Below, piece by piece: positions 28,635 to 56,325 of a stretch of 63,463 nucleotides of DNA (position 1 is its first letter; each line of letters begins with the position of its first letter). The notes under the pieces were generated by a model. It saw only the letters and a program-made list of their open reading frames with translations. It ran no database searches and was not told where the DNA came from. The translations under genes were made by a program, and so were the position numbers. The stretch is from Parcubacteria group bacterium Greene0714_7. GTDB taxonomy: Bacteria; Patescibacteriota; Minisyncoccia; Phycocordibacterales; Phycocordibacteraceae. Where the stretch lies: NCBI GenBank assembly GCA_007378985.1, contig VMHB01000004.1, forward strand, positions 1,012 through 64,474. Reading direction: 5' to 3'.

Positions 28635-28987
28635 ACGTATATATGGAAGTCTGAGATTACATCGTTAGCAATAATATGTACATCTATCTTCTTATTCAGA
28701 ATATCCTATTCAAACACTTTGCGTGAGTCACCATTGATGAGCTTGCACATAATGCTCCCGCGTTGCCCACATCTCCAGGGCCGATGTCTATGTACAGATG
28801 TGCGCCCACGCGCACATCTACGCAAAAATAGCGTCAATGAGGCCCGAGAGCGAGCGTTTGTCTTGCACTAGAGTAATATAAAACAAGTACAGTGCCCGTT
28901 CCCTTACCCCTTTAGTTAACTAAAGGAGTTGAGAGATGTTTATAAAGAAAGGAGTAACACAACGTGGCACCATTTCCTCTTTTTGAC

Positions 28988-29029
28988 ATATAGCTCTCTA
29001 TTAGACGGCCGTCTAATAGAGAGCTATAT
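28988..29029. promoter_or_regulatory. Palindrome A3 (42 nt, perfect)
   Basis: ATATAGCTCTCTATTAGACGG/CCGTCTAATAGAGAGCTATAT. Confidence 0.5.
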
Positions 29030-29074
29030 GTAGCAATGCGGATTATCCAATTTCTCACGAGGTATACTGTGACA

Positions 29075-29371
29075 ATGAAAAGTGTGTCGTGGTGGCAGAA
29101 GGCGCTTTCAGACGGTGCTACGCGTAAATTTCCCAATAGCGGATGGTCGCACACTGACCGTCTTGCTTCTATAGAAGAGCAGCTCGAGGATGTGAAGGCT
29201 TCATTCAAAGTGGAGAGCGGAGAATTACAAAGCGACGACCACGCACACCAAGACCCCAATCACCGCATTGGTGCGCTGATTGCTGACATCTTGATTCTCG
29301 CCGAAGAACGGAACGCCGATATTGAAAGCGAACTTGAAAAAGTACTCGCGTGGTTTGAAGGGCGTATTTAG
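29075..29371 (+). CDS. MazG-like nucleotide pyrophosphohydrolase (small, single domain)
   Basis: IEEQLEDVKA ... IGALIADILILAEERNADIESELEKVLAWFEGR. An alternative start lies at 29036. One of only a few plus-strand genes in the window, isolated among minus-strand neighbours. Confidence 0.5.
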   Translation: MKSVSWWQKALSDGATRKFPNSGWSHTDRLASIEEQLEDVKASFKVESGELQSDDHAHQDPNHRIGALIADILILAEERNADIESELEKVLAWFEGRI

Positions 29372-29445
29372 GTCGCATTCACACACACCGCAAAGCAACG
29401 AGTGCGCCGGACTCCCCTAACAAAAAGCTACACCCACTCGGAACC

Positions 29446-29487
29446 ATATCGCTCTCTAACAGACGGCCGTCTGTTAGAGAGCGATAT
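29446..29487. promoter_or_regulatory. Palindrome A4 (42 nt, perfect)
   Basis: ATATCGCTCTCTAACAGACGG/CCGTCTGTTAGAGAGCGATAT. Lies between convergent genes, so it may act as a terminator. Confidence 0.45.
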
Positions 29488-29541
29488 GTGAAAGAAAACG
29501 GCAACTTTAAAAAACATCAGATACATTTAAAACTCTCTGCC

Positions 29542-30537
29542 CTAAAGCAACACACGTCTTCCTTCACGGGCGGAAATACGCATAGCCTCCAAAACACTTG
29601 CTTGGCGGATGATACGGTCGTACATTTCTTTAAACTGTTTAGTATTCTGTGCAATAACAGCTTGGCAAAAGAAATCAAAACTAAGGGCGAATTGATTTGC
29701 TGTTGGGATTTCTAAACTCACGAGTGTGTCTTTGGCACCATCGTTGGTTATGAGCTCGACAGTCGGTGCCATCATAGGTGGTATCGCAAATGCGCGATTC
29801 GTGCGCACCATTCCTTTGGAACCCCACACCGAATAGGTATTTTGATAGAGGTGATCGAAACCAAATGACATTAGCGCAGTTCCCTTTTCAAATTCAAGAA
29901 GTGCCGAGCCTTTGATATCAACGCCTGCACCGGCGTTTGAAAGCGTACAAGTAACAGCAACCGGTTCTTGCTGCATAATCTTTCGTGCCATGAAAACCGT
30001 ATAGCAACCTGCATCGTTGAGGGCACCACCCTTCAAGTCCGCACTATAGCGAATATCACCAGACGGGAACGGTGGGAATCCGTACGCACCACTCCACACA
30101 TGTGGTGTGCCGATTTTCCCTTCTGCAATGAGTGATAGAATCGTCGCGTGTTGTGGGTGAAACTCGGGAACGAAATTCTCATACAGTGCAACGCCGTTTT
30201 CTCGACATACATCTACCATACGCTTCGCCGACTCGAGACTATAGGTAATCGACTTCTCGCAGATGATGTGTTTTCCAGACTGCGCCGCCTGTAGTACCCA
30301 CTCTTCCTGAAGTCCAACAGGAAGCGGACTGTATATGACATCAATATCACTACGCACAATCAAGGAATCATAGGTCTCGGCTTCTAATCCATGACGCTCT
30401 GCCCACTCATCTGCCTTACTCTTCTCGCGACTCGCTATCGCAACAAGCCCTACATTTGGTAATGACCTGAATGCTGGTATCGCGTATTTCTCTGCGATGT
30501 TTGCACAACCTAGAATACCGACACGAATTTTTTTCAT
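29542..30537 (-). CDS. Gfo/Idh/MocA-family oxidoreductase (candidate NDP-hexose 3-ketoreductase)
   Basis: MKKIRVGILGCANIAEKYAIPAF plus pathway context. Confidence 0.8.
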   Translation of the reverse strand: MKKIRVGILGCANIAEKYAIPAFRSLPNVGLVAIASREKSKADEWAERHGLEAETYDSLIVRSDIDVIYSPLPVGLQEEWVLQAAQSGKHIICEKSITYSLESAKRMVDVCRENGVALYENFVPEFHPQHATILSLIAEGKIGTPHVWSGAYGFPPFPSGDIRYSADLKGGALNDAGCYTVFMARKIMQQEPVAVTCTLSNAGAGVDIKGSALLEFEKGTALMSFGFDHLYQNTYSVWGSKGMVRTNRAFAIPPMMAPTVELITNDGAKDTLVSLEIPTANQFALSFDFFCQAVIAQNTKQFKEMYDRIIRQASVLEAMRISAREGRRVLL

Positions 30538-30538
30538 A

Positions 30539-30850
30539 CCCCCACACCTTTTATCTCATAAAATGCTTCTTGAAATCCGCCTTTTGAGTTGCCCGAGTGC
30601 TTTCCCGTCTTTTTTGAGAGAAAATTCTCTACCCCTCGCGTCTCGTTCTGAAGTGTAGGACTCATAGTAGCGAAGCTCAAAAGGTCGACGAGGCTTGGTA
30701 GATTTAACCATTCCGCCATTGTGCTCGGAAAATCTTCGACGCAAATCATTTGTCGATCCAACATATAACTTTTCATCTTTGAGGCTTTTAAGTACATATA
30801 CGTAATACATAGAGAATTGATTTGCGTCAATGAGATGAAAGGTGTGGGGG
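30539..30850. mobile_element. 312-nt family-2 TIR element carrying a GIY-YIG gene (13-bp perfect TIR, 5-bp TSD TATGA)
   Basis: Plus-strand TCATA at 30534-30538 and 30851-30855. TIRs are CCCCCACACCTTT and AAAGGTGTGGGGG. Confidence 0.55.
30556..30810 (-). CDS. GIY-YIG nuclease family protein (84 aa)
   Basis: MYYVYVLKSLKDEKLYVGSTNDLRRRFSEHNGG. Confidence 0.85.
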   Translation of the reverse strand: MYYVYVLKSLKDEKLYVGSTNDLRRRFSEHNGGMVKSTKPRRPFELRYYESYTSERDARGREFSLKKDGKALGQLKRRISRSIL

Positions 30851-31513
30851 TCATAGCAAAGCGCATACATTACGCGCGAGAGAATTAACCGTCGTATCAA
30901 CGCGCAAGAGTTTCTTAATCTCGGGGAGTGTGAGCCAAATGTAATCTTCAGTAACAGGCACTTCTTCTGATTCGTCCACCTCCACAAGCATTGAGCGATT
31001 CACCTTATGGAAAAACCGACCACCGTCTTCGACGCCCAAAACTGATGCAATGAGTCTTCCTTTCGTCCCGTCAAAATATTCAGCAAGCCGTGGGCGCTTT
31101 CCCCCATGCGCTTGCGCCAGATTGCCTTCGGAAACCTGACATGCGGGCGATATCTGCACACTGTTGATATTCCCCGGCTCAAATTTTGCATAGAAAAGAT
31201 ACTTTGTGACACCATCTTTCTTTTGCACTAACACGCCTGAAATACCGACCTCTTCCTGTTTCAACATCGGCTGACTCCACGACGGCACTTCCCTGTCCGA
31301 GGCACCTGTTATCTTTACGCCAATAATCGAGAAAAATTTTCCTGACTCATGCGTGATATTTCCACTTACAGGATCTGTTTTCCAACCCTGCACATCATTT
31401 ACTCCGACCGCTTCCACAGTGACTGGGTACGACTCCTGCTTTTCTTTGAGCCACGCGAGAATGGGCTTGATGTCAGTGTCTTCGTTCTTAGAAATGAAAG
31501 GTGTTGGGGTCAT
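30851..31513 (-). CDS. NDP-hexose 2,3-dehydratase-like protein, single-domain (half-size) form
   Basis: SGKFFSIIGV, SWSQPML, GISGVLVQKKDGVTKYLFYAKFEPGN. 220 aa, versus the two-domain enzymes I recall. Confidence 0.55.
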   Translation of the reverse strand: MTPTPFISKNEDTDIKPILAWLKEKQESYPVTVEAVGVNDVQGWKTDPVSGNITHESGKFFSIIGVKITGASDREVPSWSQPMLKQEEVGISGVLVQKKDGVTKYLFYAKFEPGNINSVQISPACQVSEGNLAQAHGGKRPRLAEYFDGTKGRLIASVLGVEDGGRFFHKVNRSMLVEVDESEEVPVTEDYIWLTLPEIKKLLRVDTTVNSLARNVCALL

Positions 31514-32739
31514 ACGATTTCAACGCTAGGGATAGGGATAATGAATTTCGCACCGCGTGCACGCAATTCTTTTTCTTTTTCGAGAATGAAGTCGCGGTAG
31601 TTCCATGCAAGAAGTAGAACATACTCCGGCGTCTCGGTCTTTAGTATATCGGGAGAAACGACTGGAATATGACTCCCTGGTGTAAGGAGTCCAATTTTGT
31701 ACGGAGTTGTATCAGTAACATACTCAATATCATCTTGAGTAAAGCCACAAAAATTAAGAAGAGTGTTGCCCTTGGCTGGCGCGCCGTAAGCGACCACCTT
31801 CTTTTTTTCTCTGCGTATTTGGCGCACGAGCGACACGAGCTTCTCTTTAATTGCTTCTGCATCTTTCTGGAAATCAGCAAATCGTGCGAGTGAATGTAGC
31901 CCTGCTTTCTCTTCCAGCGCGAAAAGTTCGTGCACAGAATTTTCAATCGGTAATCCGGACGCCTTGCGAGCAAAGACACGAATAGACCCACCATGCGTCG
32001 GCATGCGCACTACATTAAATACTTCCATACCAAACCGACCAAATAAGTGTTGCAGAGGCTTCACGCTGTAGTAGCACAAATGCTCGTGATACACCGTATC
32101 AAATTCCCCATGCTCCACGAGGTCTAGCAAATAGTGTGATTCCGATACGAACACGCCGTCATCGGTAAGAAGGTCTTTTACCCCTTGCACAATTTCATCA
32201 AGGTCGTCTATGTGCGCAAAAACATTGTTGGCAGAAATAACCTTCGCCTTGCCATGCATTTCTATTATTCGTTTCGCCATTTCAATAGTAAAGAAGCCAC
32301 TCTCAGTTTCGATTCCTTTTGCGCGCGCAGCTTCGGCAACATTCGCCGATGGCTCAATACCAAGCACGCGATGTGTGCCGACGAAATTTTGTAACAAAAT
32401 GCCATCATTACTGCCAATATCAACAATGAGGTCACCTGGGGCCACATGTTCACTTTTCAAATCATCCGCATACGAACGAAAGTGGTCAACGAGCGGTTTA
32501 GAAGCAGAGGAAAAATACGCATACTCACCGTGAAAAAGTTCGTCTTCCGCAACCACATCGAGGAGTTGCACCAGATTGCAGGTACCGCAAAAATACACAT
32601 CTAGGGGATACCGTTTTTCGTCTTTGAGGTGTTCGGCATCAGTAAAATTATCAACTGGCGGATGCTCGCCAAGCGAGAGAATGCGCGTGAGACTAGAGCC
32701 TTTGCACACACGACAGGTAACATTGCGAAGATGGCTCAT
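31510..32739 (-). CDS. NDP-hexose C-methyltransferase (Zn-ribbon plus SAM-MT plus C-terminal domain)
   Basis: CRVCKG..CGTCNLVQL, LIVDIGSNDG. Start placed at MSHLRNV, 4 nt after the leader ORF stop. Confidence 0.75.
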   Translation of the reverse strand: MSHLRNVTCRVCKGSSLTRILSLGEHPPVDNFTDAEHLKDEKRYPLDVYFCGTCNLVQLLDVVAEDELFHGEYAYFSSASKPLVDHFRSYADDLKSEHVAPGDLIVDIGSNDGILLQNFVGTHRVLGIEPSANVAEAARAKGIETESGFFTIEMAKRIIEMHGKAKVISANNVFAHIDDLDEIVQGVKDLLTDDGVFVSESHYLLDLVEHGEFDTVYHEHLCYYSVKPLQHLFGRFGMEVFNVVRMPTHGGSIRVFARKASGLPIENSVHELFALEEKAGLHSLARFADFQKDAEAIKEKLVSLVRQIRREKKKVVAYGAPAKGNTLLNFCGFTQDDIEYVTDTTPYKIGLLTPGSHIPVVSPDILKTETPEYVLLLAWNYRDFILEKEKELRARGAKFIIPIPSVEIV

Positions 32740-32858
32740 CCCGTTAGAAGTAGGAAGCTTGTGCTTCCGACTCAAGATTAAATTTCATAATCATACGACC
32801 TAGAATACAGCATTCAGAAAGGATATCACTTCCCAAACTTCCGCGACTTCTAACGGGA
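32739..32858. mobile_element. 120-nt MITE-like element, family 1 (13-bp perfect TIR TCCCGTTAGAAGT/ACTTCTAACGGGA, 4-bp TSD)
   Basis: Plus-strand CTCA at 32735-32738 and 32859-32862. Confidence 0.55.
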
Positions 32859-32863
32859 CTCAT
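32744..32863 (-). CDS. 39-codon leader ORF spanning the family-1 element (MSPVRSRGSLGSDILSECCILGRMIMKFNLESEAQASYF)
   Basis: Same layout as 10532..10648: TAA inside the right TIR, 4 nt before the main ATG. Confidence 0.4.
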   Translation of the reverse strand: MSPVRSRGSLGSDILSECCILGRMIMKFNLESEAQASYF

Positions 32864-32887
32864 AGCACGCAGTATACCGAACGACTG

Positions 32888-33721
32888 TTATGCCTTCCAT
32901 TCCTCGGACACATACTCGGCAAGTGCCTCTTGCCACGGTCGGAGAGTTATCCGTTTTGAGGAAATAGATTCGTTTGTTGGAAGCGTTGTGCTGGATGCGA
33001 AGTAACTTCGATCGACAGCACGCACGTGTGCGTCTGGCTTTACGTGGGTAGCCATTGCAGTAGCGAGGTCAAAGCGCGTAGCGGTACCAGCATTTGCAAT
33101 GTGAAATATGCCCCGCTCGCCTTTTTCGAGCAGGTCTTTAATCGTTGCAACAAAATCTTTCCCGTATGTTGGCGAACCGTGCACATCGTAGAGAGCGGTG
33201 ACCTCTGTGCCCGACTGCAATTGTTTTAGGACTTTGCCGTAAAATTTATTGTCTCGATCAACTCCCCCGCCAAATACCCACGCGGTGCGAGCGATGATGT
33301 ACGACTCTACAAGTGATGCGACGATGAGCTCACTGATATATTTAGTGCGACCGTAGTGCGTCTGTGGATCTGGCGCGTCATCTTCAGTGTACGGACCTTT
33401 TTTGTGTCCGTCGAAAACACGCGAACTCGAAGCGAGAACCATGGTCGCGCCAACTGATGTGGCAGCTTGCGCCACATTGTAGGTACCGCGCACATTAAGC
33501 TCGTAGGCATACAGGGGATCCTGTTCTGTTTTCATCATGTCGGTTGCGCCTGCGAGGTGAATAATAGCGCTTGGATTGTTTTTTTTGACGAACTCCATGA
33601 CTGCATCTGCATCAAGAATATCGAGTGTCGTGTGGTCAGGACGATAACCGAAATCCACATACGAACCAATCATTCCGCCGGCACCAATGGTAAGAACTTT
33701 TTCGAAATCAAAAGAGTTCAT
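32888..33721 (-). CDS. NAD(P)-dependent sugar reductase/epimerase (RmlD-like, candidate 4-ketoreductase)
   Basis: VLTIGAGGMIGSY, YGRTKYISE. Confidence 0.7.
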   Translation of the reverse strand: MNSFDFEKVLTIGAGGMIGSYVDFGYRPDHTTLDILDADAVMEFVKKNNPSAIIHLAGATDMMKTEQDPLYAYELNVRGTYNVAQAATSVGATMVLASSSRVFDGHKKGPYTEDDAPDPQTHYGRTKYISELIVASLVESYIIARTAWVFGGGVDRDNKFYGKVLKQLQSGTEVTALYDVHGSPTYGKDFVATIKDLLEKGERGIFHIANAGTATRFDLATAMATHVKPDAHVRAVDRSYFASSTTLPTNESISSKRITLRPWQEALAEYVSEEWKA

Positions 33722-33861
33722 ACCCCCACACTAATACTGCTGTAATTCTTGCCGAACAGACTCCAGCGACCAGTGGAGTTTTCGTACCCTAAAATAACTT
33801 TTCTAATTCTCTTGTATGTATTCATAATCTGAGGCAACAGCAGTATTAGTGTAGGGGTCAT
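33718..33861 (-). CDS. 47-codon bridge ORF through the element (MTPTLILLLPQIMNTYKRIRKVILGYENSTGRWSLFGKNYSSISVGV)
   Basis: Its ATG overlaps the rmlA stop (ATGA). Its TGA overlaps the reductase ATG (ATGA). Confidence 0.4.
   Translation of the reverse strand: MTPTLILLLPQIMNTYKRIRKVILGYENSTGRWSLFGKNYSSISVGV
33723..33857. mobile_element. 135-nt family-2 TIR element (20-nt TIR, 5-bp TSD TATGA)
   Basis: Plus-strand TCATA at 33718-33722 and 33858-33862. TIRs are CCCCCACACTAATACTGCTG and CAGCAGTATTAGTGTAGGGG. Confidence 0.55.
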
Positions 33862-34574
33862 ACAGCACGCTTCGCGACCTCATGTGCGACACGGAGCAAA
33901 GATTCGAATGTACCCGCGTCCGACCACAAACCTTTAATAATTCCGTAGGAGAGCTTTCCTTTCTTGATATAGGCGTTGTTGGCGTCCGTAATTTCCAACT
34001 CACTTCGACCTGAAGGCTTCAGCGTTTTTATGATGGAAAAAATATCGTTGTCATATAGGTAGAAACCAGTTTGGGCAAATTTTGATTTTGGTTTCTTTGG
34101 TTTTTCTTCAATCTTCACTACCCTCTTACCTGCTGTATCAAACACGGGCACACCAAAACGGTGCGAGTCATTCATTGCCTTAAAAAATACTTTCGCACCA
34201 CCGTTGAAAGAAGCAACATCTTTTGCAAAATCTTGTTCAAATATATTGTCACCCAGAATGACAGCAATTGGGCCTCCGTCGGAGAAATCTTCCGCGTAGC
34301 GTAGCGCGTCGGCGATACCTCCGTTGTTTTTGTCTTGCAACGCATACGAGAGCTTGACACCGAACTCTCTGCCCGAGCCGAGGAATTGCATAAAGTGGCC
34401 CGCATGCTCGCGTCCAGTTACTATCATGATATCGGTAATCCCTGAGCGCTTCAGCGTCTCCAGAGGGTAGAGAATCATTGGTTTGTTGTATACAGGAAGG
34501 AGGTGCTTATTTGTAATAAGCGTCAAAGGGCGCAAGCGTGTGCCGAGTCCTCCTGCAAGAATAACGCCTTTCAT
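33858..34574 (-). CDS. rmlA: Glucose-1-phosphate thymidylyltransferase
   Basis: MKGVILAGGLGTRLRPLT. Confidence 0.9.
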   Translation of the reverse strand: MKGVILAGGLGTRLRPLTLITNKHLLPVYNKPMILYPLETLKRSGITDIMIVTGREHAGHFMQFLGSGREFGVKLSYALQDKNNGGIADALRYAEDFSDGGPIAVILGDNIFEQDFAKDVASFNGGAKVFFKAMNDSHRFGVPVFDTAGKRVVKIEEKPKKPKSKFAQTGFYLYDNDIFSIIKTLKPSGRSELEITDANNAYIKKGKLSYGIIKGLWSDAGTFESLLRVAHEVAKRAV

Positions 34575-34575
34575 A

Positions 34576-35660
34576 TTATTTTTTGTTTTTATCTTTGTGC
34601 CCTTCCCACAAATCAATGTGCGGGTTGAATACACCAGTCTTACGGCGAACCCTTTCTATCCACTTCCTATTTTGAGTGTACCACTCTACCGTATCGGCGA
34701 AAGCCTGCTCAAAGCGGTACTCTGGTTTCCAGCCAAAGTCTTTCATAATGAGCGACGCGTCAATGGCATACCTACGGTCGTGCCCTTACCTTTACCAAAA
34801 TATTTCAAGATACGATCAGCAATTTCACGATTATTCATTTCATTGTCCGCACCGATGTTATACACCGCTCCTGGCTTTCCATTAAGGAGGCAAAGCTCAA
34901 GCGCCCTGGAATGATCTAGTACATACACCCAGTCACGCACATGATTACCATCGCCATACAAAGGAAGTGTCTTTCCCTCAAGCATGCGGAGTACAAAAAA
35001 CGGAATGAGTTTTTCTGGATACTGGCGCGGGCCGTAGTTATTGGAGCAATGCGTTACGATAACTGGAACGCCCCATGTGTTGTGATAAGCACGGCATAGC
35101 ATATCGCCTCCAGCTTTCGTTGCGGCATACGGCACATTCGGCGCAAACGCCGTTTGCTCAGAAAATTTATCTTCAGAATCCAGTGCAAGCGAACCATACA
35201 CCTCATCAGTGGAAACCTGTACGAACGATTGCACTGTACCTGCCACCTTGACGGCTTCAAGCAAATTGAATACACCAACGATGTTGGTATTAATAAATTC
35301 CAGTGAGCCGACATGGATACTTCGATCAACATGCGTCTCGGCTGCGAAATTTATGACGTAGTCGGGTTGGTATTTCTTAAATACAGCAGTGACTTTCTTT
35401 TGGTCAGCTATGTCACCTTTCACAAATGTATAGCGTGCATCTTTTACAAAATCTCGCACATTGTCCGTATTCCCGGAATAGGTAAGTTTATCAAAGTTGA
35501 TGATTCGCACCTTGGGATATTTTTCAAAGATATGATGAATGAAGTTCGATCCAATGAATCCCGCCCCACCGCACACGAGCATGGTTTTTCCATTCAGTGT
35601 TGGAATGACACTGTGCTTTAAAGGGCTCTTTTTTCTGGGTTTTTTTATCGTGGTTGCCAT
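34576..35660 (-). pseudogene. rmlB: dTDP-glucose 4,6-dehydratase interrupted by a 1-nt frameshift at 34783-34785
   Basis: MLVCGGAGFIGSNF, YAATKAGGD. The conserved C-terminus HDRRYAIDASLIMKDFGWKPEY..VEWY is intact in the adjacent frame. Confidence 0.8.
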
Positions 35661-51907: not shown

Positions 51908-51994
51908 GAAACTAGTGTATAGCGTTTAGCGTTGAGGGTCTAGCGAAGACACAAATATACAAAGAGACTAAGTGGCTAAATGATTAAATAGAGA

Positions 51995-52036
51995 CGATAT
52001 AGTTTAATCTAACGATCGTTAGATTAAACTATATCG
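51995..52036. promoter_or_regulatory. Palindrome B1 (42 nt, perfect)
   Basis: CGATATAGTTTAATCTAACGA/TCGTTAGATTAAACTATATCG. Lies 88 nt upstream of the ATG at 51907. Confidence 0.5.
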
Positions 52037-52070
52037 ATTTTTCTCTCTATCTTGGTGAAACCCTTGAAGA

Positions 52071-52652
52071 TTATTTAGCCGGAGACAAACCAAAACGGCG
52101 GCGGAGAGCTCCGTCATTCTCTATGGTGTCAGCAATGATGTACAGAACTTCCTGTCCCATCTTGAGGTCAGCCTTGATGAGTATAATCAAATCTTCACAA
52201 TCATACGGATACGCCCACACACTATTTTGCAGACGAACAAACCCAAGATTGATGAGTGCCATTCGCATCTTGTCGCGCAAACCTCGTCGCTTTTCTTCGA
52301 TATCAAAAACAAGCACGCGCCACTTACCATCCCATTGTTTTGGTTTTTTAGGAGTCAGCGCACCTTCATGCACCAACATCGCAAATCGCTCCCCTTTCGG
52401 AGTCAAAGACGCATACGAAGTGCCATTTCTTTTTTCAAGAACAATGTATCCTTCACGAATCATTCGTGAAAAAGACTCTTTCACCTGATAGCGTCGTTGA
52501 TTAAGAAATTTCATCTTTCCCAACGCCCCAAGAACATTTGGTGCGACAGATGCCACAGCAAGAGTACCTGTCAGTGCAACAGCATTAATGATGGCACTAT
52601 TAACTTTTGTTCGACGAATCTTCCCCTTCAGTGCCTGTTCAATTTTTCCCAT
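52071..52652 (-). CDS. PaaX-like transcriptional regulator, paralog 2
   Basis: WDGKWRVLVFDIEEKRRGLRDKMRMALINLGFVRLQNSVWAYP. Confidence 0.65.
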   Translation of the reverse strand: MGKIEQALKGKIRRTKVNSAIINAVALTGTLAVASVAPNVLGALGKMKFLNQRRYQVKESFSRMIREGYIVLEKRNGTSYASLTPKGERFAMLVHEGALTPKKPKQWDGKWRVLVFDIEEKRRGLRDKMRMALINLGFVRLQNSVWAYPYDCEDLIILIKADLKMGQEVLYIIADTIENDGALRRRFGLSPAK

Positions 52653-52737
52653 ATGCGATTTAGCGAAATCGTGTCGCGCACCGTCTCTTAAGACGCGACC
52701 CGAAAAAAAATAATGTAGTAAAATTCTTAAATAATAA

Positions 52738-52779
52738 CGATATAGTTTAATCTAACGATCGTTAAATTATACTATATCG
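52738..52779. promoter_or_regulatory. Palindrome B2 (42 nt, 2 mismatches)
   Basis: Lies 86 nt upstream of the regulator ATG at 52652. 39 nt are identical to B3. Confidence 0.5.
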
Positions 52780-52825
52780 TAAGAATATAAGGAATATAGT
52801 GCAAAACCAGTTATACCCGAGAACA

Positions 52826-56283: not shown

Positions 56284-56325
56284 CGATATAGTTTAATCTA
56301 ACGATCGTTAAATTATACTATACAA
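56284..56325. promoter_or_regulatory. Palindrome B3 (copy of B2, outer 3' end degenerate)
   Basis: Lies 65 nt upstream of the ATG at 56219. Confidence 0.5.

Follow-up and report, generated by a model that had tools for sequence, protein, structure and literature searches.

Standalone GIY-YIG nucleases of the Slx1-like/UPF0213 branch have been treated as vertically inherited housekeeping nucleases, as in a phylogenomic survey of 2006 (PMC1564403). In the candidate phyla radiation (CPR), GIY-YIG open reading frames (ORFs) have been described in rRNA-gene insertions that belong to neither the group I nor the group II introns and do not look like homing (PMC11270868), and short ORFs of integron attI sites (ORF-11 and ORF-17) enhance the translation of cassettes without a ribosome-binding site (reviewed in PMC8876359). 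Here, we describe a 312-nt element bearing a GIY-YIG nuclease gene in a deoxysugar operon of the Parcubacteria group bacterium Greene0714_7 (GenBank assembly GCA_007378985.1, contig VMHB01000004.1, positions 1,012 to 64,474; the whole stretch of 63,463 nt is referred to as the window). We hold with high confidence that it is a mobile element of a family with shared inverted-repeat ends, and put at roughly 0.6 the probability that it is a site-specific GIY-YIG transposon with a frame that relays ribosomes, preserving the translational coupling of the operon. The relay mechanism and the mobility driven by the nuclease are both proposed from sequence, with moderate confidence.

Anatomy, nuclease and mobility of the window element

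All positions refer to the window, and the element and operon genes lie on the minus strand, hereafter the gene strand. A direct read agreed with the anatomy given in an earlier note on this DNA, which had described 13-bp perfect inverted repeats and a TATGA duplication around 312 nt, an 84-amino-acid (aa) GIY-YIG ORF, and a frame open for 106 codons from the left ATG to the TGA over the reductase ATG. The repeat CCCCCACACCTTT lies at 30539-30551 with its exact reverse complement at 30838-30850, and plus-strand TCATA at 30534-30538 and 30851-30855 (gene-strand TATGA) flanks the 312-nt interior, giving the gene-strand layout GCTTTGC TATGA CCCCCACACCTTTCATCTCAT ... ATGAGATAAAAGGTGTGGGGG TATGA AAAAAATT. 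Lengthened to 22 nt, the terminal inverted repeat matches at 21 of 22 positions (one mismatch), and the 13-mer end occurs five times in the window at two or fewer mismatches, against 0.94 expected (0 of 100 shuffles reached five). The features of the element are:

30851..30855, minus strand: left TATGA copy, in which the 2,3-dehydratase-like gene stops (TGA) and the relay frame opens at the duplicated ATG (30854-30852)
30830..30850, minus strand: left terminal inverted repeat CCCCCACACCTTTCATCTCAT, the same end as at dozens of loci
30556..30810, minus strand: gene for the 84-aa Slx1-like GIY-YIG nuclease (Pfam PF01541, E = 1.6e-16)
30534..30854, minus strand: relay (bridge) ORF of 106 sense codons, in frame +1 relative to the nuclease gene, which begins at the duplicated ATG and ends on the TGA over the reductase ATG
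30539..30559, minus strand: right terminal inverted repeat ATGAGATAAAAGGTGTGGGGG, which includes the nuclease stop codon
30534..30538, minus strand: right TATGA copy, holding the relay-ORF TGA stop and the Gfo/Idh/MocA reductase ATG

The relay frame thus runs from the ATG at 30854 to the TGA at 30536-30534, which overlaps the reductase ATG at 30537, with an ATG-to-ATG distance of 317 nt across the element. Given TATGA holds both the upstream stop and the downstream start, its duplication regenerates both, and the element is bordered by two ATGA stop/start overlaps of the kind associated with translational coupling (dehydratase TGA and relay ATG at 30851-30854; relay TGA and reductase ATG at 30534-30537). 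The same overlaps are found at a 135-nt element elsewhere in the operon, E1, and at all copies of the TATGA-flanked clade.

The earlier note had proposed a comparison with genomes that lack the insert, and such genomes were found. The sister strain SCTS01 (Patescibacteria metagenome-assembled genome FW305_bin.14, contig SCTS01000002.1, loci L001 and L129) has the same operon at 89–97% nucleotide identity (here and below, WIN is the window's own copy, and L with a number denotes other genome loci recovered in the comparison). Its dehydratase/reductase junction is empty and has a single TATGA (TTGTTATGAAAAAAATC, within GCGCTTTGTTATGAAAAAAATC), as opposed to TATGA, 312 nt, and TATGA in the window; the window copy has thus been inserted, with 5 bp duplicated. 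Three junctions of the operon differ in occupancy among its relatives:

Dehydratase/reductase junction: occupied in the window and L213; empty in SCTS01, L201/L223, L211, and L215
Methyltransferase/dehydratase junction: 19-nt remnant in the window; full element in SCTS01, L201/L223, and L213; empty in L215 (ATCGTATGAAAGAAGAC); a different remnant in L228
RmlA/RmlD junction: the 135-nt E1 in the window; full elements in L202/L211, L233, L215, and L232; 81- or 84-nt deletion derivatives in L209, L217, and L218; a 21-nt remnant in SCTS01

The two L213 copies, at adjacent junctions, are 97.9% identical to each other and at most 92% identical to any other copy, a pattern that indicates recent movement inside one genome. 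At least five different sites have been used, each with TATGA duplicated. L210/L224 have, nested in the non-coding leader of a different GIY-YIG element, a 32-nt hairpin copy flanked by duplicated TATGA, and the same leader is uninterrupted in L235. The TATGA specificity would therefore be mechanistic and not merely a product of selection.

Two independent remnants, one at the RmlA/RmlD junction of SCTS01 (L129) and the other at 31491-31509 of the window, end at the same internal position of the left stem arm (...CAT[C/T]TC) and are joined straight to the right-hand TATGA, such that exactly 19 nt of this arm is kept between the TATGA copies. The shared endpoint suggests a defined cleavage point as opposed to random deletion, and hints at structure-guided cutting. 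Microhomology-mediated deletion was also considered for the 19- and 21-nt remnants and was rejected, as no microhomology is present at the joints.

In profile searches, the nuclease scored as a GIY-YIG domain and nothing else, with the Pfam match to the GIY-YIG superfamily spanning residues 1-71. Among 26 homologues, residues Y3, Y5, Y16, G18, R25, R26, and E62 (with the catalytic Tyr, Arg, and Glu among them) do not vary, nor do H30 and N31, and the ratio of nonsynonymous to synonymous substitution rates (dN/dS) of the gene is 0.06–0.14 within the TATGA clade. A phmmer search of Protein Data Bank (PDB) sequences matched only 1zg2 (2.3e-5) and 1ywl (2.4e-3), the UPF0213 proteins BH0048 and EF2693. 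The predicted structure (predicted local distance difference test score, pLDDT, 88.5) has the order beta-beta-alpha-beta-alpha-alpha, and a Foldseek search with this model ranked 1zg2 (BH0048) and Slx1 entries best (E = 5e-4 to 1e-2, root-mean-square deviation ~2 Å, 28–34% identity), followed at lower ranks by I-TevI (0.15) and UvrC (0.6). The protein is a catalytic domain alone, without a DNA-binding domain, as in the standalone Slx1-like/UPF0213 branch. Given the fold match, the invariant catalytic residues, and the low dN/dS, the nuclease is probably a functional member of this branch. An exact-protein look-up returned no record of the window's own sequence. Slx1 enzymes cut branched DNA, an activity that would suit an element with ends able to pair into a stem.

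A GIY-YIG catalytic domain inserted between operon genes, with the same junctions occupied in many strains, might also suggest a free-standing homing endonuclease gene like those of the seg/mob type in phage T4, copied into the empty allele after cutting. However, homing produces neither inverted-repeat ends nor a target duplication, the sites used here share TATGA only, the 84-aa protein is a catalytic domain with no DNA-binding domain, the fold is closer to Slx1 than to I-TevI, and no relatives were found in viral contigs. We consider homing very unlikely. A group I intron was rejected as well, given the small size, the lack of an Rfam hit, and the presence of a duplication and inverted repeats.

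As a site-specific transposon, the element shares with insertion sequences a target-site duplication established by comparison with the empty site and terminal inverted repeats. No recognised transposase class (DDE, DEDD, HUH, Ser, or Tyr) is encoded, and the nuclease gene is the sole ORF under selection. The conserved protein also sets the window element apart from MITEs (miniature transposable elements with inverted repeats), a definition that does fit its 135-, 84-, 81-, and 32-35-nt relatives.

The wider family is widespread in Patescibacteria. We detected 435 nuclease homologues, almost all of 84 aa, and those with names come from this phylum (Paceibacterota, Nomurabacteria, and similar groups). 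The gene is flanked by the ends CCCCCACACC...GGTGTGGGGG in 80 genome loci, in units of ~311-330 bp, and CCCCCACACC ends and nuclease gene stay together down to 53% protein identity. Most family members have 4-bp duplications and are found, in either orientation, in ordinary intergenic DNA at distances from ORFs of tens to hundreds of nt. The target differs by nuclease clade (TATGA, TTAT/CCACA, TATAA, or TAAAT), with a duplication of 4 or 5 bp. Scans with 18-mers find TATGA-flanked copies only, and clade membership was also checked by protein-based look-ups blind to the flanks; a 14-mer genome scan (TATGACCCCCACAC) listed almost exclusively chance matches in unrelated phyla.

One other clade (L002-L006, L011, L014, L019, L022, L029, L036, L037, L235, and L236) is inserted exactly at the DnaA-box 9-mer TTATCCACA, in either orientation, and duplicates TTAT. 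Perfect copies of this 9-mer number 19 in 236 kb versus 1.8 expected, and 12 of the 19 adjoin an element end. Two further loci of lineages related to the TATGA clade, L237 (its sister in the tree) and L241, have the 5-bp duplications TAAAT and TATAA, which contain a TAA stop but no ATG, and have 3-5 stops in the +1 frame.

These targets bear on whether the nuclease moves the element or is a passenger (a selfish or defence nuclease) in a non-autonomous repeat mobilised by a conventional transposase encoded elsewhere. No GIY-YIG nuclease is known to catalyse transposition, the gene-less derivatives and 32-35-nt hairpins evidently moved in trans, and duplications of 4-5 bp are typical of DDE enzymes, all of which would fit a passenger. 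Yet hundreds of copies, near-constant in size, keep gene and ends together over a range of 95% to 53% protein identity, the gene is under strong purifying selection, and the target changes with the nuclease clade. In addition, no larger element with CCCCCACACC ends was seen in any locus recovered, a result that extends to those loci and not to a scan of whole genomes for a separate transposase. We regard the passenger as unlikely. The constant pairing of nuclease and ends, the targets that track nuclease clades, and the trans-mobilised hairpins point instead to the nuclease as the putative mobility enzyme, which would probably act by structure-specific cleavage at the paired ends.

The open frame, a proposed ribosome relay

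The earlier note had read the open frame and its length as a rule under selection for read-through coupling, one that should fail if homologous inserts had stops in the bridge frame and arbitrary lengths modulo 3. Across the family, both are seen. In 75 other family elements, the bridge frame (+1 relative to the nuclease gene) has 2-12 stops (a 70-gene subset has a mean of 4.8, compared to a codon-shuffle expectation of 4.86), and element lengths are arbitrary modulo 3. Selection for read-through does not hold at this level, and the support for it comes from the element's own clade.

The nearest protein relatives (P0001-P0004) and the copies found with 18-mers are all TATGA-flanked, co-oriented with their operon, and at a stop/start junction, and TATGA-flanked copies form one clade in a neighbor-joining tree. 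All ten distinct full-length copies of this clade have zero stops in the frame that ends on the right-hand TGA. By length, they are:

312 nt: WIN, L215, and L232
311 nt: L129, L223, L211, and L233
317 nt: both L213 copies
321 nt: L203

The L203 copy has only 73% nucleotide identity and lies in a different operon. Elements equally distant by protein (81%) with other targets (L235, L236, and L237) have 3-6 stops, and a TATAA-flanked relative has five.

The chance of a stop-free frame given the window nuclease protein and host codon usage is 0.027. Taken over the three deep lineages WIN, L211, and L203, the respective values are 0.027, 0.036, and 0.069 (joint ~7e-5). Because synonymous divergence is saturated between WIN and L203 and between L211 and L203 (1.1 between WIN and L211), common descent does not explain the retained openness. 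Codon choice has a matching signature. Only nine codon positions could give a +1 stop by synonymous choice, and all use safe NTY codons, with CTT and CTC varying. In the TATGA clade, Leu/Val/Ile codons end in a pyrimidine in 62 of 63 cases before a purine, versus 38 of 80 before a pyrimidine; pooled over the three deep lineages, the counts are 20/0 versus 15/11 (Fisher p = 0.001), and the outgroup has no such effect. At nuclease codon 7, 42 of 46 outgroup copies use a stop-making codon.

Could the open frame still be a functionless by-product of the nuclease sequence, shared by descent? The clade is monophyletic, the single-copy probability of 0.02-0.07 is not extreme, and the frame is closed and lengths are arbitrary family-wide. 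However, the frame is kept across saturated synonymous divergence, the codon signature is limited to stop-prone contexts, the unrelated sequence of E1 and four deletion derivatives are also open in the right phase, and the open frame correlates perfectly with the TATGA junction context. We consider chance improbable, and there is a good case, built on these patterns, that the frame in the TATGA clade is under selection for openness.

The earlier note had left room for an overlapping gene and proposed that synonymous and nonsynonymous patterns be compared in both frames. A second protein would account for an ATG-initiated ORF of 106 codons kept open throughout the clade. The comparison spoke for openness and not for a product: relay peptide identity is 28-77% where the nuclease keeps 81-95%, falling to 28% where the nuclease is at 81%, and its dN/dS is ~1-3.8, compared to 0.06-0.14 for the nuclease. 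The peptide has no Pfam or PHROG match, its start differs between the 312/321-nt and 311/317-nt variants, and the short derivatives retain only the openness. An overlapping gene is thus extremely improbable. Because the peptide is not conserved while the frame stays stop-free, selection would act on openness and not on a product, which points to the passage of ribosomes.

The rule that the ATG-to-ATG distance is 2 modulo 3, which the earlier note had drawn from two elements, is broken within the clade. In the 312- and 321-nt copies and in the gene-less derivatives (135, 81, 81, 84, and 21 nt), length is 0 modulo 3 and the duplicated ATG opens the frame. The 311- and 317-nt copies have a length of 2 modulo 3 and an ATG-to-ATG distance of 1 modulo 3, and their duplicated ATG opens an ORF of 21-23 codons that is stopped by the TAA of nuclease codons 7-8. 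In all six of these copies, the open frame contains an ATG placed 7 nt upstream of that TAA.

Two remnants arrive at another solution. In the window remnant at 31486-31514, the right ATG is now AAG, and the left ATG, with 19 nt of element end, reads in frame into the dehydratase; in L228, dehydratase codon 2 is joined in frame to the nuclease ATG-TAT. Six independent derivatives are all translation-compatible, with a probability of (1/3)^6 = 0.0014 by length alone.

The empty junctions suggest what such a frame may do. As read from the alignment, their upstream 20 nt contain no Shine-Dalgarno-like sequence, which makes it plausible that the downstream genes rely on termination-reinitiation at ATGA. 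In the RNA, pairing of the inverted repeats is predicted, closing the whole element with the base of the stem touching both TATGA copies. Left untranslated, the stem would hide the downstream start; a ribosome translating across would open the stem. We propose that ribosomes ending the upstream gene would restart on the duplicated ATG, translate across the element while opening the stem, terminate on the second ATGA, and restart on the downstream gene at its true start. In the 311/317-nt variants, the restart would pass through the ORF of 21-23 codons, with its TAA 7 nt after the internal ATG. The insertion would thereby be nearly silent inside a translationally coupled operon. Separately, a host with recoded UGA was rejected, as TGA clearly terminates the operon genes at ATGA overlaps.

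RNA structure might achieve the coupling by itself if the paired repeats juxtapose stop and start, such that a ribosome terminating upstream would melt the left arm and thereby release both the right arm and the ATG. Both window elements are predicted to form the closing stem (z = -3.5 and -4.1), and the right arm, which ends 1 nt from the ATG, is G-rich and weakly Shine-Dalgarno-like. Structure alone leaves the stop-free frame, the codon signature, and the 0-modulo-3 derivative lengths unexplained, and as a full account we think it doubtful. Such unmasking may well act together with the relay.

Several points weigh against a nuclease-driven transposon with a ribosome relay, to which the limit noted above on the search for a separate transposase belongs. 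The host organisms are uncultured, and the relay is argued purely from sequence. Given the TATGA clade is monophyletic, its open frame arose once, and the case for selection is one of retention in about three deep lineages together with codon context. Most copies of the clade come from one sugar operon of related organisms, and further TATGA stop/start overlaps in the window (21431, 26502, and 53251) are empty. A two-step restart in the 311/317-nt variants is possible, and would be needed, as the duplicated ATG there is out of frame. Pairing of the ends might by itself couple translation, through an unmasking of the downstream start. Lastly, GIY-YIG enzymes are hydrolases with, to our knowledge, no strand-transfer activity.

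Host operon and other traces in the window

All TATGA insertions and remnants of the window are confined to a single sugar operon. Its genes and the further traces of the family in the window are:

33858..34634, minus strand: RmlA-like nucleotidyltransferase
33718..33862, minus strand: element E1, 135 nt non-coding (33723-33857) with TATGA flanks, ends CCCCTACACTAATACTGCTGT / ACAGCAGTATTAGTGTGGGGG
32888..33721, minus strand: RmlD-like reductase
31510..32775, minus strand: C-methyltransferase
31486..31514, minus strand: element remnant at the C-methyltransferase/dehydratase junction, TATGA with 19 nt of the left end (CCCCAACACCTTTCATTTC) and TAAGA
30851..31513, minus strand: single-domain NDP-hexose 2,3-dehydratase-like ORF, with its TGA stop in the left TATGA
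29542..30537, minus strand: Gfo/Idh/MocA oxidoreductase ORF, with its ATG in the right TATGA
12451..12493, no strand assigned: minimal hairpin copy in which two ends stand back to back (CCCCCACACCTTTTCA ttc TGAAAAGGTGTGGGGG), with TATA on each side

E1, which the earlier note had mentioned as the first element of the same family (the 312-nt element being the second, E2), is real. It sits between the RmlA-like stop and the RmlD-like ATG, with TATGA on both sides and an open relay frame of 47 codons. In common with the nuclease-bearing elements, it has just the outermost ~10 nt (CCCCNACAC). A search with the E1 end returned no second copy among genome representatives, and no parent element emerged. 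In all relatives, the RmlA/RmlD TATGA junction is taken up by E2-type elements or remnants, and E1 appears to be a case of re-use of this site.

At the next occupied junction, the solitary left end at 31491-31509 now forms codons 2-8 of the dehydratase ORF. The protein begins MTPTPFISK-NED... in the window, compared to MNED... in SCTS01, and the nine codons of MTPTPFISK correspond to the duplicated ATG, the 19-nt remnant, and the mutated right TATGA (TAAGA). A host protein has here gained its N-terminus from transposon debris.

The dehydratase has a further peculiarity. In the window and in orthologues from L001 and L201, it has 212-220 aa and one Hexose_dehydrat domain. Characterised NDP-hexose 2,3-dehydratases are about twice as long and have two such domains. 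No second dehydratase half was seen in the operon.

The minimal copy at 12451..12493 consists of a 35-nt hairpin proper (12455-12489) and lies upstream of, or within the first codons of, the ORF at 10819..12525. Nearby and elsewhere, the window has two families of perfect palindromes of ~44 nt, in pairs at 12523-12565 with 13121-13163 and at 51994-52041 with 52733-52780, and further palindromes at 28982-29030, 29445-29493, and 56287-56322. Each of the two pairs flanks a gene for a protein of 185-193 aa (12565..13122; 52071..52652) with a PaaX central, Cas2-like domain (E ~5e-20), and the pairs may be operator sites or another cassette-like unit. An Rfam search over 29000-34700 returned nothing but sub-threshold noise at an unrelated palindrome.

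For annotators, the family means that inserts of 0.3 kb and remnants of 20-135 nt are to be expected at gene junctions, and that remnants can lend element-derived codons to host proteins, as with MTPTPFISK at the start of the window dehydratase.

Comparison with known systems

We tentatively raise the prospect, at somewhat less than even odds, that these elements are an undescribed class of transposon: one with an 84-aa Slx1-like nuclease as sole protein, the smallest autonomous transposon known, with clade-specific targets (TATGA overlaps; the DnaA-box TTATCCACA) and a silent relay through an arbitrary peptide. In the full-text literature, we found no description of a bacterial GIY-YIG gene with inverted-repeat ends, nor of a transposon that targets stop/start overlaps or bears a relay frame; subscription journals were mostly outside this coverage, and an earlier description is possible. 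If the proposal is true, the Slx1-like GIY-YIG nucleases would be added to the few enzyme classes by which bacterial DNA elements are moved, and it would be accounted for that Patescibacteria, with their reduced genomes, have so many small "GIY-YIG nuclease family protein" genes. The element would also exemplify a new route by which a transposon avoids harm, through insertion at a stop/start overlap with both codons regenerated and the frame open for ribosome passage, and the relay frame would be a clean case of selection on translation itself and not on its product.

Bacterial insertion sequences and MITEs, such as the Correia elements of Neisseria, resemble the family in their terminal inverted repeats, short duplications, and presence or absence between strains, as well as in internally deleted non-coding derivatives, co-transcription in operons, and ends that pair in RNA. 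In contrast to insertion sequences, the only protein here is an 84-aa GIY-YIG hydrolase and not a DDE, DEDD, HUH, serine, or tyrosine transposase. Unlike in either group, the full unit is just ~312 bp, the target is a stop/start overlap, and a stop-free relay frame is present.

The UPF0213 proteins (1zg2 and 1ywl) and eukaryotic Slx1 provide the best match in sequence (E = 2e-5) and fold and share the minimal catalytic domain, but the gene described here travels as cargo in a mobile unit whose inverted-repeat ends are conserved. The seg/mob genes of T4-like phages and I-TevI are likewise GIY-YIG genes with selfish behavior located between operon genes; unlike the window element, they lack inverted repeats and a duplication, have long DNA-binding domains, and use one cognate site, as opposed to many sites that share 5 bp.

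A small nuclease gene between hairpin-forming inverted repeats, with solitary hairpins scattered in the genome, is also seen in REP/RAYT systems (REPINs) and in IS200/IS605, although RAYT and TnpA are HUH Y1 enzymes and produce no target duplication. Rickettsia palindromic elements offer the parallel of a selfish palindrome tolerated through an open reading frame; those lie within genes and become part of the protein, whereas the present elements lie between genes and their frame would only relay ribosomes. The attI ORFs of integrons come closest in this respect, as short ORFs of a mobile platform that deliver ribosomes downstream by coupling, but they belong to a fixed platform, are not carried by a transposon, and have no nuclease gene overlapping them. 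Finally, the CPR rRNA insertions (PMC11270868) come from the same phylum and encode proteins of the same superfamily. No ends, duplication, or target rule is described for them in that work, and they may be members of the same element family.

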